Both the position numbers and the translations under genes were made by a program. From positions 64,001 to 128,000 of the forward strand of contig JADJFV010000035.1 of NCBI GenBank assembly GCA_016708435.1: a stretch of DNA of 64,000 bases, written 5' to 3'. Positions within the stretch are counted from its first letter, which is position 1, and each line of letters starts with the position of its first letter. The DNA is from Leptospiraceae bacterium (GTDB lineage: Bacteria; Spirochaetota; Leptospiria; Leptospirales; Leptospiraceae). Below are positions 10,969-32,631 of this stretch, piece after piece. The notes below the pieces were generated by a model that saw nothing but the letters and a program-made list of their open reading frames with translations, was not told the DNA's origin and did not search any database.

Positions 10969-12735
10969 ATGCTCAAAATAGCTTACGGAGAAGCCAGCTT
11001 CGATAATTTAAAAAGTCAGGGTGCTACTTACATAGATAAAACTATGTTTATTCCCTTGATGGAAATCCATACAAAGTTCTTTTTCATCCGCCCTCGTAGG
11101 TTTGGAAAAAGTCTTTGGATAAGCGTATTACAAGCATACTACGATGTTGCAAAATCGGATAAATTCGATACTCTGTTTGATGGTTTGTATATTAAGGACA
11201 ATCCTACAGATTATAAAAATTCTTATCTCATTCTTAAATTTGATTTTTCTGGTATTAATACAGAGAATGAAGAGAGTTTGAAAAGCGATTTTACTTTTCG
11301 AATCAGAAGACAGGTGATTAGCTTTTTTAAATATTATAAAAGTTTTTTTAATGATGTATTTTTGGGAAGTATAGAAGAAAATTTTAAGAATCTTTCCTCG
11401 AGCCAATTGATAGCAAGAATAAAGGATGAAGTAAAATTAATAGATAAAAAACTCTATGTTCTAATTGACGAATACGATCACTTTGCCAACAAACTCGCCT
11501 CTGAGGGAAGAGAATCTTTTATTAAAAATATAATGTCCAGTGCAGGTTTTGTCAGAGAGTTTTATGAGCAGTTGAAAATTGCAAGCGGCGAAGGTGTGAT
11601 AGAGCGATTTTTTATCACAGGTGTTTCGCCAATCATGTTGGATGAGTTATCGAGTGGATTTAATATTACAAGCGATATGACAACCGATATTGATTTTAAC
11701 GAAATGCTGGGATTTACTAGTGATGAGGTCAAGGGCTTACTCAATAAAGTTGGTGATGAAAGATATTTAGATAAATCCAAAGACGAAGTTTTTCAAGATA
11801 TGGTTCATTATTATAATGGATATCGTTTTTGTGATGAAGCAGAAAAAACTCTATTTAATTCGGATATGGTTTTGTATTTTTTAGAATATTTTAATCGGAG
11901 AGGTTATCCAAAAGAATTACTCGATGAAAATGTGAAAACCGATTACAATAAACTTCGCGGACTCATCATCGGCACTAGCGGCAAAGAAAAATTACAATCT
12001 ATCATCGAAGAAATAAATTTGAACAGTTCTCTGAGTCTAACACTCGTTAAACGCTTCAACTTCTCCCAAAGGTTCAGCGATAACGAACTTAAATCATTAC
12101 TTTTTTATCTTGGGCTTCTTACTTTTTCCAATAAACCAAATCAATTTGCAATTCCCAATTACGTAATTCGCACACTCTATTGGGAATATTTACGGAAATT
12201 TCTGGAAGAAAGTCTCACAATTGAGTTTGATATGCGATTGTTGAATAATGCAATTTACGGTATGGCTGAGACCGGAGACCCTTCTGGATTAAAAGAACTC
12301 GCTGTAGATTTCTTTCAGAAGAAACTATCTAGTTATGACTACACCAATTTTTCAGAGAAGCATGTTAAATTTCTTTTTGTCTGCTATTTTACTTTGAGTA
12401 AGTTATATAACATTATCTCCGAGCGAGAAATCTCCGAAAGGAAGCGAATTGATTTATTATTCGAAGCTCATCCGGCTTATTATGAGTATGTGCAGTTTAA
12501 CTTTATCCTCGAGTTCAAATACATTCGTAAAGAAGATAGTGAGTCAGTCGCCTTAAAAAAGAAAGAAGATGCAATCAAACAAGCTGCTGAATACTACGAA
12601 ATCTACAAACGAGATTTTAAACAATTTGGTCGCGGACTTCGCTCTGTGGCAATGCTTGTTAGTCACACTAGAGACGTGGAAGTAATTGAAGTCGGTGGAT
12701 TTGGGGAGAATTTTTACAAAGAATCATTTTTCTAA
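10969..12735 (+). CDS. AAA-ATPase_like (PF09820) N-terminal domain fused to a PD-(D/E)XK nuclease domain (PDDEXK_9/DUF1703)
   Basis: The hallmark is ATYIDKTMFIPLM...FFFIRPRRFGKSLWIS. The C-terminal RIDLLFEA...FILEFKY has the D-E-K triad. Confidence 0.75.
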   Translation: MLKIAYGEASFDNLKSQGATYIDKTMFIPLMEIHTKFFFIRPRRFGKSLWISVLQAYYDVAKSDKFDTLFDGLYIKDNPTDYKNSYLILKFDFSGINTENEESLKSDFTFRIRRQVISFFKYYKSFFNDVFLGSIEENFKNLSSSQLIARIKDEVKLIDKKLYVLIDEYDHFANKLASEGRESFIKNIMSSAGFVREFYEQLKIASGEGVIERFFITGVSPIMLDELSSGFNITSDMTTDIDFNEMLGFTSDEVKGLLNKVGDERYLDKSKDEVFQDMVHYYNGYRFCDEAEKTLFNSDMVLYFLEYFNRRGYPKELLDENVKTDYNKLRGLIIGTSGKEKLQSIIEEINLNSSLSLTLVKRFNFSQRFSDNELKSLLFYLGLLTFSNKPNQFAIPNYVIRTLYWEYLRKFLEESLTIEFDMRLLNNAIYGMAETGDPSGLKELAVDFFQKKLSSYDYTNFSEKHVKFLFVCYFTLSKLYNIISEREISERKRIDLLFEAHPAYYEYVQFNFILEFKYIRKEDSESVALKKKEDAIKQAAEYYEIYKRDFKQFGRGLRSVAMLVSHTRDVEVIEVGGFGENFYKESFF

Positions 12736-15717: not shown

Positions 15718-18129
15718 ATGAAACGGGAAACCTTAGATAAAAAAATACCGACCTTATTTATCGTAATCTTTTTTACATTTTGCAATCTAGGGAACCATAA
15801 TACAAAAGAAGAAAATGAATCCTTGTTCACAAATTTGGGATTACTGTTTAGCAGAGCCAATCGACTTACTGTATCAGGCTCTGCAGTAAAAGGAATTGTT
15901 AAAAATGGAAAAGTGTCAATTAGCACCGTAGAAAAAGATGGAAGTTGTAATTCCTCTCAGAGTCTTGCCACTGGAACTACAGACATAACTGGACTCTATT
16001 CTATTTATTATAACAAAGTAGGGGGAATGATTTGTATTACTATTTCCGGCGATCAAAATACTACCATGTATGATGAGAAATCTGGAAAAGACTTACCGGT
16101 TCCATCTACTTCTGATTTTAAACTGGTTTCTATTCTTCCTGAAAGTAAATTTTCTAGTAATTCAAAAAAGAACGCTCTCATCTCTCCCTTTTCAAAATTA
16201 TTATCCAAAAGAATGGAAACCTTAATTAAGCAGGCAGGAGAAGGGGCAGATGTATCGGCACTTTACAAAAAGGCAAGCAAAGAAGTAGTCATCCGATTCG
16301 GTTTAAGTTCTGGTCTTTCAAGTGCTTCGCAAAAAAACAAACGACTTCTAGAAATCAGACCCAGTATTTTAGATTCAGATTATCCAGAATTGGATGATCT
16401 TGTAATAGAACTAGACAACCCGAATAGCCCTATCTCTGCTAAATATCTTTCTGTGCTGGCAGGTTTTTCACAACTGGCAAATTCTTACAAAAAAGAAACG
16501 GAAGTTAAAGTAACAGATGTAGATTCAGTAATAAACGCATTTGCTTCTGATTTTGAGGATGGAGTTTTTGACGGAAAAAATGGTTCGGGCAGTACAGTTA
16601 CATTGGGGGCTGGTCAAAGGCAACTAACGTTTTCTTCCAATCCTCTTACTACTATTTTGCTACCCGCGATTTCCACTTATCTGCAAGAAGGAGGAAATTT
16701 GAGCGTAGGTGTGCCAGGAACAGCAACATCTACAATCACGATAACTCAATTCACAAATCAAACTCAGTTTAATGACAATAGCCCAATCATATCTACTACA
16801 ACAACTACTACACCTACCACCACGCCAACCCCTACGCCTGTGGTAACTCCGATAACTCTCAGCATAACAGCATTTAGTTTTACGGATACTGTAAACGGTT
16901 TAAGCAAAACCTATAACGGCATAATAACTGGAAGCAATATTACAATCGATATACCCTATGGAAAGCTTACGTCCGCGATTCCTTCTATTACTACAAATGC
17001 TACTACCATCATGGCTCCTTCTGCTGTAACAAGCGGAGTAACTTTGTTAGACTTTACAAACCCTGTCACACTTACTCTAAGTGCTGCCAATGCGGCTAAT
17101 GTAGTGTATACCGTTACAGCGTATCCGATAACGCCTGTAGCAGATACAGGTCAGACGATTTGTTTTAACAATGCAACCCCTCAAGGATCTTGCGCTACTA
17201 CAACGGCCACCTTCCCAAATCAGGATGGAGAACTTTTAAATTTTCCAAATGCAAAAGGAACACAAGCTATTTCGACTAACCCCGGTTACCCAAATGATCA
17301 AATCAATCAAGATACTTTAAAAGGTATCGTTTGGAAAACATGCCACGAAGGTCAAACAGGACCAACTTGTGCTGGAGGAACAGCTTCTACCAATAATCAT
17401 GCATCAGCTACTACGCTATGTGGTAATTTGAATTCAGCAAATTCTGGAGCAGGCTATGCTGGATTAAAAAATTGGAGATTGCCGAATGTTTATGAATTGA
17501 ACCAATTATTGGAACTTAACGGTAGCACGACGAATAACAACTATTGGAATGCAACTTTTTTCCCAAATGCACCAGCAGGAGGTTTAAGCAGATGGACTTC
17601 TTCATTAATATTGCCAGCGGCTACTAGTGCTATGACCCAAACTACTGAATACATTCAAAACCAGGCTACTTCCACTCCCAATTATGTTCAATGCGTGAGT
17701 GGACCCGCTTCTCCCGCTTTTGATATGGTTGATAATGGAGATGGAACAATTTTTGATAAAAGAACTAAATTGATTTGGCAAAGATGTGCTTTTGGACAAA
17801 CTAATGATGCTACCTGTTCAGGTGCTCTCGCAACTAAAACCTGGACTAATTCATTGTTAGATTGTAAGAATTTAACTTTAGCAGGAAAGTCTTGGAGACT
17901 TCCCAATGCGAATGAATTTTTGACTCTAGTGGATTTGTCTATTACCACTGTTCCAAAAGTGAATCCTACTCTTTTTCCTAATTTTGGTGTTGCAAATTAT
18001 GAGACTAGTTCAACCAATCAAAATAATCTTGCCTATTCCCATATTTTTGATACCAATGCTACTGGCTTTTATGGATGGTCAGGGAAAGGAAGTGTTTACA
18101 ATTCCCGTTGCGTGGCTGGTCCTGAATAA
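15718..18129 (+). CDS. Large lipoprotein with an N-terminal conserved module, a Thr/Pro linker, and C-terminal 2x DUF1566 (Lcl C-terminal-like) repeats
   Basis: The lipobox is FTFCN. The linker is TTTTTPTTTPTPTP. Two DUF1566-like repeats are NWRLPNVYELNQLLEL and SWRLPNANEFLTLVDL. The first ~350 aa are ~70% identical to ORF 35091-37646. Confidence 0.7.
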   Translation: MKRETLDKKIPTLFIVIFFTFCNLGNHNTKEENESLFTNLGLLFSRANRLTVSGSAVKGIVKNGKVSISTVEKDGSCNSSQSLATGTTDITGLYSIYYNKVGGMICITISGDQNTTMYDEKSGKDLPVPSTSDFKLVSILPESKFSSNSKKNALISPFSKLLSKRMETLIKQAGEGADVSALYKKASKEVVIRFGLSSGLSSASQKNKRLLEIRPSILDSDYPELDDLVIELDNPNSPISAKYLSVLAGFSQLANSYKKETEVKVTDVDSVINAFASDFEDGVFDGKNGSGSTVTLGAGQRQLTFSSNPLTTILLPAISTYLQEGGNLSVGVPGTATSTITITQFTNQTQFNDNSPIISTTTTTTPTTTPTPTPVVTPITLSITAFSFTDTVNGLSKTYNGIITGSNITIDIPYGKLTSAIPSITTNATTIMAPSAVTSGVTLLDFTNPVTLTLSAANAANVVYTVTAYPITPVADTGQTICFNNATPQGSCATTTATFPNQDGELLNFPNAKGTQAISTNPGYPNDQINQDTLKGIVWKTCHEGQTGPTCAGGTASTNNHASATTLCGNLNSANSGAGYAGLKNWRLPNVYELNQLLELNGSTTNNNYWNATFFPNAPAGGLSRWTSSLILPAATSAMTQTTEYIQNQATSTPNYVQCVSGPASPAFDMVDNGDGTIFDKRTKLIWQRCAFGQTNDATCSGALATKTWTNSLLDCKNLTLAGKSWRLPNANEFLTLVDLSITTVPKVNPTLFPNFGVANYETSSTNQNNLAYSHIFDTNATGFYGWSGKGSVYNSRCVAGPE

Positions 18130-18144
18130 TGACTATAAGACAAA

Positions 18145-18915
18145 TTAATACAACAGATGCTTCACAGTAGTTCCTTTGTTGATGAGTTGTTTAAGGGAAT
18201 CAATGCCAATCTTTATCTGTAAGTCCACATAATCCTTAGTAACCTCATTGTCGCTTTGTTCGGTTTTAATTCCGTCGGGTTCCATTGGTTGATCGGATAC
18301 GAGTAGTAGTGCGCCGGCTGGTATTTCGTTGTAGAAGGCAGTTGAGAAGATGGTTGCTGTTTCCATATCAATTGCCATGGCGCGAATTTTTTTAAGGTAG
18401 TTTTTAAATTCAGAATCCCATTCCCATACTCTTCTATTTGTTGTGTAGACCGTTCCTGTCCAATAGTCCTGGTTGTAGTCTCGAATTGTTGTAGATATCG
18501 CTTTTTGTAAGGCGAATGCGGGAAGGGAAGGGACTTCGGGGGGATAATAGTCATTTGACGTTCCTTCTCCTCTTATTGCCGCAATAGGAAGAATGAAATC
18601 ACCTAGATCGTTTTTCTTCTTTAAACCTCCGCATTTTCCTAAGAATAAACAGGCTTGTGGTTTGATGGCACTGAGACAATCCATGATCGTTGCGGCATTG
18701 GGACTACCCATTCCGAAGTTAATAATCGTTATCCCCTCAGAAGTAGCACTTCGCATCGGTCTATTCAAGCCATCTACTTTTACATTATGCCAGTCTGCAA
18801 ATTTCTGAACATAATTATCAAAGTTCGTCAGTAGTATATAACTTCCAAAGGCATCGAGTGTAACACCCGTATACCGCGGAAGCCAGCTTTCAACGATTTC
18901 TTTCTTTGTCTTCAT
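18145..18915 (-). CDS. amn: AMP nucleosidase (PNP_UDP_1 family catalytic domain)
   Basis: INFGMGSPNAATIMDCLSAIKPQACLFLGKCGGL...GDFILPIAA matches the Amn catalytic core pattern. The start is taken at MKTKK. The upstream extension in the ORF track reads into a low-complexity repeat. Confidence 0.75.
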   Translation of the reverse strand: MKTKKEIVESWLPRYTGVTLDAFGSYILLTNFDNYVQKFADWHNVKVDGLNRPMRSATSEGITIINFGMGSPNAATIMDCLSAIKPQACLFLGKCGGLKKKNDLGDFILPIAAIRGEGTSNDYYPPEVPSLPAFALQKAISTTIRDYNQDYWTGTVYTTNRRVWEWDSEFKNYLKKIRAMAIDMETATIFSTAFYNEIPAGALLLVSDQPMEPDGIKTEQSDNEVTKDYVDLQIKIGIDSLKQLINKGTTVKHLLY

Positions 18916-18927
18916 AGTAAGTTCCTT

Positions 18928-19262
18928 TTGCCACAGAGGGGCAGAGGGGCGGGGGGCCAAAAATAATTATTTTTTTTTATTATTAATAAAAGGAGGGTGG
19001 ATGATATTAAAAAACCCCCCCTCTCTTTCTTTTTTTTTTTAATAAAACCAAAAAAAAAAAAACAAAAAAAAAAAACCCCCTGCCACAGGGGCCCAGGGGC
19101 AAAGGGGCCCAGAGTAAAATTTTTTTTTCCCATTTTTTAATAAAGGCGGGGTGGAAATTAAAAAAAAAACCTTTTCTTCCCTTTTTATTTAATTAATAAA
19201 CTAAAAAAAAAAACAAAAAAAAAAAAATCAAAATATCCTCTCGGTGCGCCTCTGTGGCGGTC
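18928..19262. repeat. Expanded copy of the CACAGAG terminal-inverted-repeat element, with a homopolymer-rich low-complexity interior
   Basis: The left end is TTGCCACAGAGGGGCAGAGG. The right end is CTCTCGGTGCGCCTCTGTGGCGG. The interior is made of A, T, C and G homopolymer runs with an internal ~120-bp tandem duplication. Confidence 0.55.
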
Positions 19263-19267
19263 CCTGT

Positions 19268-19986
19268 TTACTGCGAAGTTTTAACGTAAGGTGCGATGAG
19301 TGATTGGACATGTCCAGCTAATGTCTTGCTATCCATTGTTTTGATTGTATCTACTGTGACAGGAGGAAGGATTGTAATTGTGACATCGGCTGGTTTCATG
19401 ATTCCGTTATTCTTTTCCAGTATATCTGCTGTTCCATCGATTGCGATTGGAACGATAGGCACCATAGCATCCATTGCCAGTCTCACACTTCCTGGTTTAA
19501 AGCTTTGAACCGGTCCACCTTTACTTCTTGTGCCTTCGGGGAAGATAACAAGAGAATGCCCCTGCTTGAGAACTTCTACTCCAGTCCCAATTGCCTCTGC
19601 TGATTTTGCACGATTTGATCTATCCATAAAAACACAATTCATCACTCGCATCCAAGCGCCTACAATTGGAATTTTTAATACTTCTACTTTTGAAATAAAC
19701 CCAAATGGTTTAGGAACAAATCCAATGAGCACAGGAATATCAAAACTTCCCTGGTGATTGGCTACTATTACGACTGCTCCTTTCGGAAGGTTCTCAGCGC
19801 CAACTACTGTTATCCGCCCACCTACAATATTAACTAAACCTTTAGCCCATTTGCGGGGAGTTTTATTTTTCTCCCAATCTGTTTCTTCTACTGTCGCTAA
19901 ATTTACTCTGCTTGCAATCCATCTCTCTATGAAACTCGCAAACCCTCGTATAAAAAAATACAAATAAAATCCAATTGTTCTAAACA
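19268..19986 (-). CDS. plsC: 1-acyl-sn-glycerol-3-phosphate acyltransferase
   Basis: The HX4D motif is VANHQGSFD. FPEGTRS is also present. The start is taken at MFRTIGFYLYFF. The upstream extension (PQCLCGK) is a translation of the repeat. Confidence 0.75.
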
Positions 19987-20006
19987 TGAAAACTCCTTTA
20001 GGAATT

Positions 20007-20141
20007 TTGCCACAGAGACACTGAGGCACAGAGATATTTATTTTCATCTCTGCTTTGGGAACGATATTTATTATAACTCATTTGTAAACATAATTTCCGA
20101 ACATTTACTTTCTTCTCTGCGACTCTGTGTCTCCGTGGCAA
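20007..20141. repeat. CACAGAG TIR element copy A (TTGCCACAGAGACACTGAGGCACAGAG ... CTCTGCGACTCTGTGTCTCCGTGGCAA)
   Basis: It has 27-bp terminal inverted repeats flanking an ~80-bp AT-rich core. Confidence 0.7.
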
Positions 20142-20147
20142 TCTTAC

Positions 20148-20543
20148 TCAACTCATCTCTTGCTCTAATATCTTTCTGAATTCACTAGGAATAGAAAGCT
20201 TTGTATCAAGCCGATAGTCGTAATAGACTTGCACAGTCTTTGCTTTTGCATAGATAATTTTTGTTTTTGGGTTAATAATATTTGCCGCAAAGTCCCAGGA
20301 AGTAGTTCCAACTCTTGAAACCCATGTGTGCACATCTGCTTCTTCCCCCGGCCGTAGTGAATTTAAAATATCTAGCTCTACTCTGACTAGAACAAAAGGA
20401 ATATCCTGTAAAGTCTTGATAGAAATATATTTTTTGCAAAAGTCTAATCTTCCAAGTTCTAAGTAAGAACTGTATACAGAGTTATTGACTCTCTGCATTG
20501 GATCCATATCACTAAATCGAATTTGTATTGGTGTAATTATCAT
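20148..20543 (-). CDS. Acyl-CoA thioesterase, hotdog fold (YbgC/4HBT-like)
   Basis: 131 aa. The N-terminal IRFSDMDPMQRVNNSVYSSY is typical of 4HBT thioesterases. Confidence 0.65.
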   Translation of the reverse strand: MIITPIQIRFSDMDPMQRVNNSVYSSYLELGRLDFCKKYISIKTLQDIPFVLVRVELDILNSLRPGEEADVHTWVSRVGTTSWDFAANIINPKTKIIYAKAKTVQVYYDYRLDTKLSIPSEFRKILEQEMS

Positions 20544-21577
20544 ACGAAGTAAATTCTGTTCCGTCCATTTTCTTTGGCTTTGTATAAGAGTTCATCGGAG
20601 CGTTTGAGCATAGTATCAGGTGAGTCTTGATCGGATAATGACGTGAAGCCTCCAGAAGTAGTTACTTGCCAGGGAACTCCACTGAAACTATGCGCCTCAA
20701 TTACTAAATCATTTGCCCGAACGGTTGATTGTATAATCTTTGCAATTTCTTTAAGCACATCATCTCCAGTCAAATGCCCTAGAGTGTCATTTATTTTTTT
20801 GAAATAATCTACATCCATGATTCCCTGACAGAATGGTTGTGATTTTTTTCTTGCGAGTAAAATATGGTGCACGAGTAAATCCATCATATAACGACGATTA
20901 AACACACCTGTCAATGGGTCTTTGACTGAGATGCTTTCTAAGATTGTGTTTTTTCTTCTGAGTTCTTCTTCTAAGTGAAATGTCTTTCGCCTTGCGTATT
21001 CGATTGTCAGAGTAGTCATAAATCCAACAAAGGAATACAAAAATATTTTTGTAATTGTAAGTCCATTTATTTTATCCATATGAAGTGTTGCCAAACACAG
21101 AGTAAACCCAATAACAATAAATAAATAAATGATTGCATAAAAAAGAATGCGAGTTCTAAGGATAAGAGGAATCGACATAGCTACAAAGGCAAACAACGAT
21201 AAGTCCTCTCCATGAAATAGATTTAGAATATTGATTGATAAAGCGCCAATGATAAAAATCGTAAAATACAATAAATAGATAAAGTGAACTTTCTTATGTT
21301 TTACATTTAGAAAATAAAATAGAATGGAAAATAATACAGTGGTTACAAGCAAACAACCATATACCGCTACATAGATTGAATAAGAAAAAGATTGTCTATC
21401 CACACTCGGATAAAAAATATGCTGCAATAAGAAGCTTAAGGATGCAATAAATACAACACCGGCAAATCGAGGAAAACGATTCCAATTTTTCATCGCATTG
21501 AACACGATGTATTTATCTCTCTGGATTCCTCCCAACTGAGACATTCTTCGCCTGTATGTATTTAGTAAGTATTTCAT
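20540..21577 (-). CDS. Membrane-anchored GGDEF-domain protein with a degenerate active site
   Basis: It has 6-7 N-terminal TM helices. The GGDEF fold markers are present (GVFNRRYM, GHLTGDDVLKEIA, ELLYKAKENGRNRIYFV). The GG(D/E)EF position reads HSFSG. Confidence 0.7.
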   Translation of the reverse strand: MKYLLNTYRRRMSQLGGIQRDKYIVFNAMKNWNRFPRFAGVVFIASLSFLLQHIFYPSVDRQSFSYSIYVAVYGCLLVTTVLFSILFYFLNVKHKKVHFIYLLYFTIFIIGALSINILNLFHGEDLSLFAFVAMSIPLILRTRILFYAIIYLFIVIGFTLCLATLHMDKINGLTITKIFLYSFVGFMTTLTIEYARRKTFHLEEELRRKNTILESISVKDPLTGVFNRRYMMDLLVHHILLARKKSQPFCQGIMDVDYFKKINDTLGHLTGDDVLKEIAKIIQSTVRANDLVIEAHSFSGVPWQVTTSGGFTSLSDQDSPDTMLKRSDELLYKAKENGRNRIYFV

Positions 21578-26484: not shown

Positions 26485-26616
26485 GCCGCACACAGAAAAG
26501 AGTCAATAGCCCTATCGAGATCAATCCTCTTTGTGAACTCTGTGCACTCTGTGAGAAATATGAATAGGAATAAAGTTGGCACAGACTCATAAACAACCTC
26601 AGTGCCTCGGTGGCAA
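26485..26616. repeat. Degenerate CACAGAG element copy C
   Basis: The right end is CCTCAGTGCCTCGGTGGCAA. The interior has CTCTGTGCACTCTGTGAG. The left end is decayed. Confidence 0.45.
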
Positions 26617-31615: not shown

Positions 31616-31821
31616 AAAATAAGGGCTGAGTAAAAAAATGCAGGAGTCTATCTATTCGCGTTAAGCAATCAGATATTTTTTACCAGCCCCAAAATCAGAC
31701 ACACAATTTATCTAGTTAAATTATCGTCTGAGTTCAAAATTTACACTGAAACTTTTTTTATTAAAATTTGATAATATAGGATAAGAATATGTTAAATCTC
31801 TCTAGAAATTCTATAATAAGG

Positions 31822-31962
31822 TTGCCACAGAGTCACAGAGGCACAGAGAAAGGAGAGGATAGAGGATTTAATTTAACGAATAGGTTTTTAAAAAGTTTTT
31901 CTAACATTTCGAAAATTCTTAATGTATTTTCCCCCTCCGTGCCTCAGTGTCTCTGTGGCAAA
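31822..31962. repeat. CACAGAG TIR element copy D
   Basis: The left end is TTGCCACAGAGTCACAGAGGCACAGAG. The right end is CTCCGTGCCTCAGTGTCTCTGTGGCAA. Confidence 0.7.
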
Positions 31963-31965
31963 TCT

Positions 31966-32631
31966 ATGCTACGCTTTATCGGGCGGGTTTTTGTTTTACT
32001 ATTCATTCTATCACTGAGTGCGTGCTTTGAGTATGAAGAGACGATTAATTTTAAGAAAGGGTTTGCTGGATTTGTTGAGATTACATATACCGTGCCACTC
32101 AATAATAAATCAGACAATACTGTGATTAAGTTTCTTCCTATTTATGAAGATGACATTAACAAAAGAATCAACAAAGGCTTGTTTTCTAAAAATCTAAAGA
32201 TCAAAGATTACACTCTCAAATACTTAGAGAAGAATGAAAAAGAAATCAATCCTATGTTTCAAAAAAAAGCACGCGTGAATTATAAAATTGAATTTAACGA
32301 CTTAGCAGTGTTAGACGGAGTTCTACTCGGCTCTCTATTTGTCAAAAAACGATCTAACAATAGTATCAGCGTAAAGCGAGAATTCAAATCAGTTCTTAAA
32401 CCAATTGACCAAACATCCACTACAGGCGAAAAAAAGATTTTATCTGAATCTACTCGTTTACTCGGAGAAGGATTCATTGCCTTTAGAGTCAACTTTCCGT
32501 TAACCTCAGAATGTCGCTCTAGTAAGGGAGATGTGAGTCTAGGCTCAGTCTATTACAAAATCCCTCTTGTGGATACTGTCGATAAGCCGGGACCAAAGTC
32601 CTGGGATTATACGATTACGATGTTGTATTAA
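31966..32631 (+). CDS. Hypothetical lipoprotein
   Basis: The signal peptide is MLRFIGRVFVLLFILSLSAC. The start of the upstream ORF-track extension lies inside repeat D. Confidence 0.55.
   Translation: MLRFIGRVFVLLFILSLSACFEYEETINFKKGFAGFVEITYTVPLNNKSDNTVIKFLPIYEDDINKRINKGLFSKNLKIKDYTLKYLEKNEKEINPMFQKKARVNYKIEFNDLAVLDGVLLGSLFVKKRSNNSISVKREFKSVLKPIDQTSTTGEKKILSESTRLLGEGFIAFRVNFPLTSECRSSKGDVSLGSVYYKIPLVDTVDKPGPKSWDYTITMLY

Follow-up and report, generated by a model that had tools for sequence, protein, structure and literature searches.

Between the amn-like and plsC-like genes of this Leptospiraceae contig lies a spacer built almost entirely of long A, T, C and G runs. Is it a hypermutable contingency tract that could act on amn, or was it created during assembly? 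Both options had been raised by an earlier reading of the letters alone (the sequence-only reading), and we addressed the question by analyzing the window (the whole 64-kb stretch of DNA that contains the tract) together with the same site in other assemblies. The flanking genes are amn and plsC, as had been claimed, and the locus is laid out as follows, with the descriptions of the two units representing the interpretation argued for below.

18145..18915, minus strand: amn-like gene, AMP nucleosidase, PNP_UDP_1 domain, 256 aa (translation, Pfam, NCBI name)
18916..18929, minus strand: amn leader and ribosome-binding site (direct reading)
18930..19081, no strand: unit 1, probable smeared and incomplete additional copy, corresponding to the left ~150 bp of a CACAGAG element
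19082..19269, no strand: unit 2, probable smeared full-length element copy
19268..20029, minus strand: plsC-like acyltransferase, 253 aa (Pfam PF01553; '1-acyl-sn-glycerol-3-phosphate acyltransferase')

The amn assignment is based on Pfam PF01048, found on the identical protein in L001–L003, and on the NCBI entry MBK7058371.1 ('AMP nucleosidase'). A gap of 14 bp separates its ATG from the tract, and AAGGAA (read on the minus strand; plus-strand 18922–18927) is its ribosome-binding site. At the other end, the plsC stop codon, TAA, is made up in part by the final bases of unit 2. Defined against the empty allele of other contigs, the inserted block is 18930–19269 (340 bp), and the interval of 18928–19262 given previously was therefore correct to within a few bases. 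The homopolymer richness described for it was borne out. Runs of at least 4 hold 50.6% of the tract bases, versus 10.8 ± 4.2% (maximum 23.8%) in all other 340-bp windows of the 64 kb, and all six runs of at least 10 in the 64 kb fall inside the tract. It is by a wide margin the most homopolymer-rich stretch of the window, and the homopolymer smear is confined to it, leaving the rest of the window unaffected. The exact runs are A13 (twice), A12, A11, A10, T11, T9 (twice), C7 and G6, such that the A13 and T11 listed by the sequence-only reading were accurate and its C8 and G7 were each one base too long. That reading had also seen two similar units of ~120 bp. A duplication is indeed present, with larger units of ~152 and ~155–188 bp: 18930–19081 and 19082–19236 are collinear, with 118 of 164 columns matching and an alignment score of 104 compared to −24.8 ± 22.8 (maximum 41) for run-shuffled controls. 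The CACAGAG ends it reported were readily located, with GCCACAGAGG beginning at 18930 and its reverse complement at 19249–19258; a third, degenerate copy is found at 19082. Unit 1 consists of the left terminal repeat and interior without a right terminal repeat. Unit 2 has a degenerate left terminal repeat (19082–19114), an interior, a right terminal repeat (19237–19258), and a tail, GGTCCCTGTTT, the clean counterpart of which is AGTCCCCTGTTT. An Rfam scan of 18000–21000 returned only sub-threshold chance matches, the best scoring 29.8 bits where the gathering threshold is 80.4.

CACAGAG-type motifs are not restricted to the tract. They match 17 times in the window versus 1.2 expected (14-fold enrichment), and the 64 kb holds five full CACAGAG copies plus remnants. 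The four copies other than the tract are all clean, and three of these recur in independent assemblies.

20007..20141, no strand: clean CACAGAG element, 135 bp, between the thioesterase gene and plsC; spanned gap-free by L001, L002 and L084
25135..25341, no strand: clean CACAGAG element, 207 bp, between convergent genes; exact copy in L085
31822..31961, no strand: clean CACAGAG element, 140 bp, downstream of rpoD; identical in L099 and L102, with 1–2 bases different at the right end in L100, L101, L103 and L104
38380..38588, no strand: clean CACAGAG-type element, 209 bp, assigned by reading the sequence

The ends of these elements are TTGCCACAGAG...CTCTGTGGCAA, prolonged by further 8-bp CACAGAG-like units. 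Clean copies are 135–209 bp long, non-coding and intergenic, and have interiors of normal complexity. A degenerate remnant with several CTCTGTG/CTCGGTGGCAA motifs lies at 26530–26616, and a lone CTCTGTGGCAA end is located at 12642–12652. In the Nanopore MAG contig L097 (JADKKG010000015.1), the element downstream of rpoD differs by ~25% from the version common to the Illumina assemblies, has no recognizable left end, and is flanked by single-base homopolymer deletions; it may represent residual long-read error or a divergent allele. No paper on the exact repeat string was found in the searchable literature. [quoted passage not shown]

To see how other assemblies render the plsC–amn junction, 23 same-species contigs from ENA, JGI, Logan and NCBI were chosen for encoding the exact amn and plsC proteins of the window or close variants of them. 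None of the 23 reproduces the 340-bp tract. Eleven have an empty site, with 12 bp from the plsC stop to the amn ATG ('...agttcctttt|actgcgaag...'). One of these, L084, is 99.6–99.8% identical to the window on both flanks. Nine others (L107–L114 and L123, representing nine samples from several projects) carry a clean element of 169–185 bp at exactly this junction, that of L123 reading cctttt|GCCACAGAGGCACAGAGGCACAGAGGCTCAGAGTATAATTCTTTTTATTCCATTTTTTAATAAAGGCTGATTGAAGTTTATTAACAACCCAATTCTTTTCTCTGTTACTTCATTTAATTCATCTAAATTAAAAGCCATAATAAAAAATCTCCGTGTCTCTGTGCCTCTGTGGCAGTCCCCTGTTT|actgcg. The junctions of the empty and filled alleles are identical, as is the amn leader (18916..18929). The plsC–amn junction is thus strain-polymorphic: the genes are either 12 bp apart or separated by a MITE-like element of 169–185 bp. 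A comparison of length between isolates had been suggested by the sequence-only reading as a check; between assemblies, it gave the 12-bp spacer or the clean element in 20 of the 23 contigs, and the 340-bp tract in none. It had further anticipated that an artefact would collapse to a normal CACAGAG element of ~135 bp. Independent assemblies do show a normal element here, although of 169–185 bp. The element lengths of 169, 177 and 185 bp differ by the count of 8-bp GCACAGAG units in the left terminal repeat. This unit number (seen in L107, L108 and L123) is a small but genuine tandem-repeat polymorphism. No run longer than 6 occurs in the clean copies from the nine samples, and no run-length variation between strains was seen among them. 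Exact-pattern scans of JGI metagenome contigs for the left junction (CATAGTAAGTTCCTTTTGCCAC) and for an interior string (AAGGAGGGTGGATGATATTAA) gave no match. The CATAGTAAGTTCCTTTTGCCAC scan also missed L108 and L113, which contain the junction, so both negatives are without weight.

Several contigs depart from the two common alleles. In L106 (JADKCW010000035.1, locus ~1480–1500), 'cctttt' and 'actgcg' are separated by no more than the 9 bp 'cccctgttt', and the flank SNPs are of the type found in element-bearing contigs. This remnant could be an excision footprint, a pre-insertion state, or a polishing remnant in a Nanopore MAG. In L115 and L124 (JGI 3300056827 and 3300056788), an unrelated element with TTACCACCGATGGACACCGA ends is located 3 bp away from the point at which the CACAGAG element is inserted in other contigs. 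This unrelated element belongs to a second inverted-repeat family, with ends TTACCACCGATG(G/A)ACACCGA...TCGGTGGTAA, and alters the C-terminus of plsC (264 aa) in these two contigs. The same family stands in for the CACAGAG element downstream of rpoD in L095 and L098. Its presence at both the amn and rpoD sites indicates that two element families reuse the same intergenic spots, and the plsC–amn junction is a repeatedly used insertion site. In L010 (Leptospiraceae UBA2033, DDBL01000133.1), which represents another species, amn is preceded at ~40 bp by a CACAGAG-type right end, CTCCGTGCCTCCGTGGCAGAA. The position of this end differs from that of the insertion studied here, which suggests, judging from sequence, that independent insertions upstream of amn have arisen across species of the group.

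The tract was compared directly with the clean element. Unit 2 with the right end (19082–19269) aligns to the 185-bp element of L123 from end to end, matching in 145 of 202 columns (72%). Within this alignment, four CACAGAG-like units are paired, as are the right terminal repeat and the tail (GTCCCTGTTT versus GTCCCCTGTTT in the clean copy). Unit 1 aligns to the left ~150 bp of the same element, making the tract a 1.8-fold duplicated, smeared rendering of the clean one. On the other hand, the flanks are 98.8–100% identical to the closest contigs (L084 and L116–L123) and at least 90% identical to every contig compared. Given that the insertion is absent from a strain that is 99.7% identical, a divergence of 28% within it is not plausible. 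The nature of the mismatches is also informative. In unit 2, 23 of 26 mismatches (88%, versus 41% expected) equal the adjacent true base; the expected count is 10.6 ± 2.4, and none of 2000 simulations reached 23. In unit 1, the same holds for 26 of 33 mismatches (79% versus 51%; expected count 16.8 ± 2.6), a value reached in 1 of 2000 simulations. Where a column is wrong in both units, the same wrong base is found in 26 of 33 cases, a count that is somewhat overstated because the alignments lie within low-complexity sequence. The fraction of bases in runs of at least 4 is 0.16 in the clean element, 0.44 in unit 2 and 0.59 in unit 1. Simulated mode filtering of the clean element reproduced the homopolymer enrichment. 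As a model of the smear, the filter was nevertheless rejected and serves as an illustration only: its output was 0.61–0.70 identical to the tract, versus 0.72 for the unfiltered clean sequence. The mismatch spectrum is technical, being the signature of a blurred consensus rather than of mutation, and the two units are one template rendered twice.

Based on these comparisons, 18930–19269 very probably represents a single real mobile element in corrupted form. The presence of a clean ~185-bp element at the exact site in other assemblies of the same species argues for an error of assembly and against a hypermutable switch. The artefact option of the sequence-only reading is accordingly supported by nine contigs from other samples and by the alignment of the tract to their element. 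The cause it named, read ends or polymerase slippage, is not quite right, the observed pattern being neighbor-base smearing combined with a partial duplication.

Where such an error might have originated is indicated by the source of the assembly. The NCBI proteins of the window (amn, MBK7058371.1; thioesterase, MBK7058373.1) are labeled 'MAG: Leptospiraceae bacterium' and encoded by a 321,773-bp contig, and their accessions are bracketed by those of the sister MAGs JADJBD, JADKCW and JADKKG, which carry the same locus. From this accession series and the sister MAGs, as opposed to the record itself, we infer that the window comes from a Nanopore study. The species, found in activated sludge, belongs to the GTDB genus UBA2033 of the Leptospiraceae, and JADJBD and JADJFV are both listed under this genus in species cluster 413 (Supplementary Data 3, Singleton et al. 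2021; PMC8012365). Coverage of JADJBD and JADJFV was low, at 14.7x and 11.3x for Illumina and 8.3x and 14.1x for Nanopore, respectively; JADJFV has a CheckM strain heterogeneity of 66.7, and JADJBD a polymorphic rate of 3.4% (PMC8012365). The pipeline of the study consisted of CANU (corMinCoverage=0), Racon, two rounds of medaka, and a final Racon step with Illumina reads (PMC8012365). Low-quality Sanger read tails and 454 carry-forward, which we had entertained as causes, were dropped in light of the Nanopore MAG provenance.

The most likely cause is long-read consensus calling over a strain-polymorphic site. In a low-coverage sample of mixed strains, the insertion would be carried by only a few long reads, and reads from the empty-site strain would be unable to correct its interior. 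With few insert reads and no such correction, the consensus over the element would blur, each base tending toward the call of its neighbor to yield long homopolymer runs. A stretch that overlaps poorly could then be laid down twice, producing unit 1 and unit 2. The hairpin-forming inverted repeats may lower base-call quality further; nanopore base calling is documented to suffer at inverted duplicates (PMC7229812). The same study also produced L123, a Nanopore-derived MAG in which the element is rendered cleanly, indicating a failure peculiar to this sample. Because R9.4 Nanopore errors typically shorten homopolymers rather than lengthen them, the smear would have to arise in the consensus, in polishing, or in a bad read segment. 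The sequence bordering the tract is in line with a mixture of strains. Its first 100 bp on the right are identical to the empty-type contigs L002, L118 and L122 and differ at four sites from every element-bearing contig, suggesting that the window flank is a mixed-strain consensus.

These same 100 bp raise the further option that the binned strain has an empty site and that the insert was imported from reads of a co-occurring element-bearing strain, creating a strain chimera. The empty site of the nearly identical L084 points in this direction as well. So does L003 (JGI 3300056624, Ga0558117_17346), which ends 2 bp beyond the insertion point (...ccttttac), a position that fits the assembly-graph branching expected if both alleles coexist in a sample. 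The haplotypes at the locus are mosaic, however, and it could be a natural recombinant instead. We consider a chimera a serious possibility that nonetheless falls short of an even chance. In any case, it is a sub-case of the consensus failure proposed above and does not contradict it.

An artefactual smear could also overlie a genuine doubling, with two (or one and a half) tandem elements passing through a blurred consensus. Head-to-tail MITE arrays do occur in bacteria, and the second left-end motif is clear at 19082–19114. Even so, unit 1 lacks a right terminal repeat at the unit junction, no dimer is present in any of the nine element-bearing contigs, and the units share their errors as expected of a single template rendered twice. 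A real tandem array therefore seems improbable. Less probable still, and in our view very nearly dismissible, is that the tract is real as written, that is, a diverged tandem dimer whose long A/T/C/G runs constitute a slippage-prone contingency tract upstream of amn: its ends, insertion point and tail do belong to a genuine insertion, and the Leptospirales are MITE-rich (PMC11602168), but none of the 23 other assemblies shows it, the element would have to be 28% diverged between flanks up to 100% identical to those of relatives, the changes are neighbor-base smears common to both units instead of a mutational spectrum, the clean copies have no run above 6, and a recent duplication should be near-identical whereas the units match at 72%. 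Were it real in one strain, the tract would place a slippage-prone spacer 14 bp ahead of the amn start codon, with the potential to make amn expression differ from cell to cell. The contingency tract envisaged by the sequence-only reading is unsupported given that the clean element is free of such long runs; what truly varies between strains is whether the element is there and how many 8-bp GCACAGAG units it has.

What remains once the corruption is set aside is a real MITE-like element: short, bounded by terminal inverted repeats, multicopy, and polymorphic for presence or absence. At the junction, at most TTT is repeated, and the other copies lack an obvious target duplication. We had considered whether 'agttcctttt' is a target site whose noisy duplicate forms the tail 'ggtccctgttt', an idea that was abandoned because clean copies place GTCCCCTGTTT inside the inserted block. 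The insertion leaves both the plsC TAA stop codon and the amn AAGGAA ribosome-binding site intact and, judging from its position between them, would be co-transcribed when present. The RNA of the clean element is predicted to fold with −70.1 kcal/mol (z = −6.2) into a long terminal hairpin with a stem of 18+7 pairs, and promoter and terminator scans of the clean element found nothing above background. The family appears to have been recently mobile in activated-sludge Leptospiraceae. The underlying biology is modest, with the insertion being an unexceptional representative of a known class of elements. The practical message is one of caution: this 340-bp stretch of a public MAG is unfit for motif, repeat or regulatory analysis, and a polymorphic hairpin element in a low-coverage, mixed-strain long-read assembly can yield convincing-looking 'exotic' DNA.

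Several other features of the neighborhood were observed along the way. The longest plsC ORF (259 aa) starts at 20047, inside the adjoining CACAGAG element at 20007–20141, so its first residues (...VPQCLCG...) are translated terminal repeat. The start at 20029 (253 aa) is the one called in L002 and L084. The ORF at 31789–32631 likewise begins upstream of the element at 31822–31961 and reads through it, and gene callers assign this LIC11874-family gene 215–280 aa depending on the contig. A GGDEF-domain gene (20540–21577, minus strand) lacks 30 aa, VFRFGGEEFIILFPETNLEHANRVMQRIRR, that include the GGEEF active-site motif and are present in the same gene of the same-species contigs L001 and L002. 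This 90-nt deletion is in frame, breaks near 20704, and lies 1.4 kb away from the tract; either the gene has genuinely been inactivated by it or the assembly has another local defect here. Finally, the amn protein is 83–88% identical to many Bacteroidota homologues (Cyclobacteriaceae, Cytophagales, Ohtaekwangia), including ones on complete chromosomes, and 88–94% identical to those of other Leptospiraceae (comparison with loci L007–L083), so that it is about as close to the former as to the latter. The protein sequences thus suggest cross-phylum horizontal transfer of amn.

How does the locus compare with known systems? Phase-variable poly-G and poly-A tracts form contingency loci in Neisseria, Haemophilus and Campylobacter. 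The tract resembles these in appearance only, having long mononucleotide runs just upstream of a gene; unlike at such loci, the runs are missing from every clean copy of the element. The likeness to bacterial MITEs, of which the Correia elements of Neisseria are classical examples, goes deeper. The CACAGAG elements are 135–209 bp, non-coding and intergenic, have terminal inverted repeats, occur in several copies per 64 kb, are present or absent between strains, and are predicted to be co-transcribed and to form a hairpin. They differ from typical MITEs in that their terminal repeats are built of 2–4 tandem 8-bp units (GCACAGAG) in strain-variable number and in that their interiors differ widely from copy to copy. 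As for the corruption itself, it resembles the consensus and polishing errors of long-read metagenomes in being local, confined to an inverted-repeat element polymorphic for presence or absence on a contig that is otherwise accurate, and in its probable origin from a Nanopore/CANU/Racon/medaka pipeline at ~8–15x. Whereas the published effect of inverted duplicates on nanopore sequencing consists of low-confidence, wrong or missed calls (PMC7229812), the element here was smeared into long homopolymers and given a duplication of ~150 bp.
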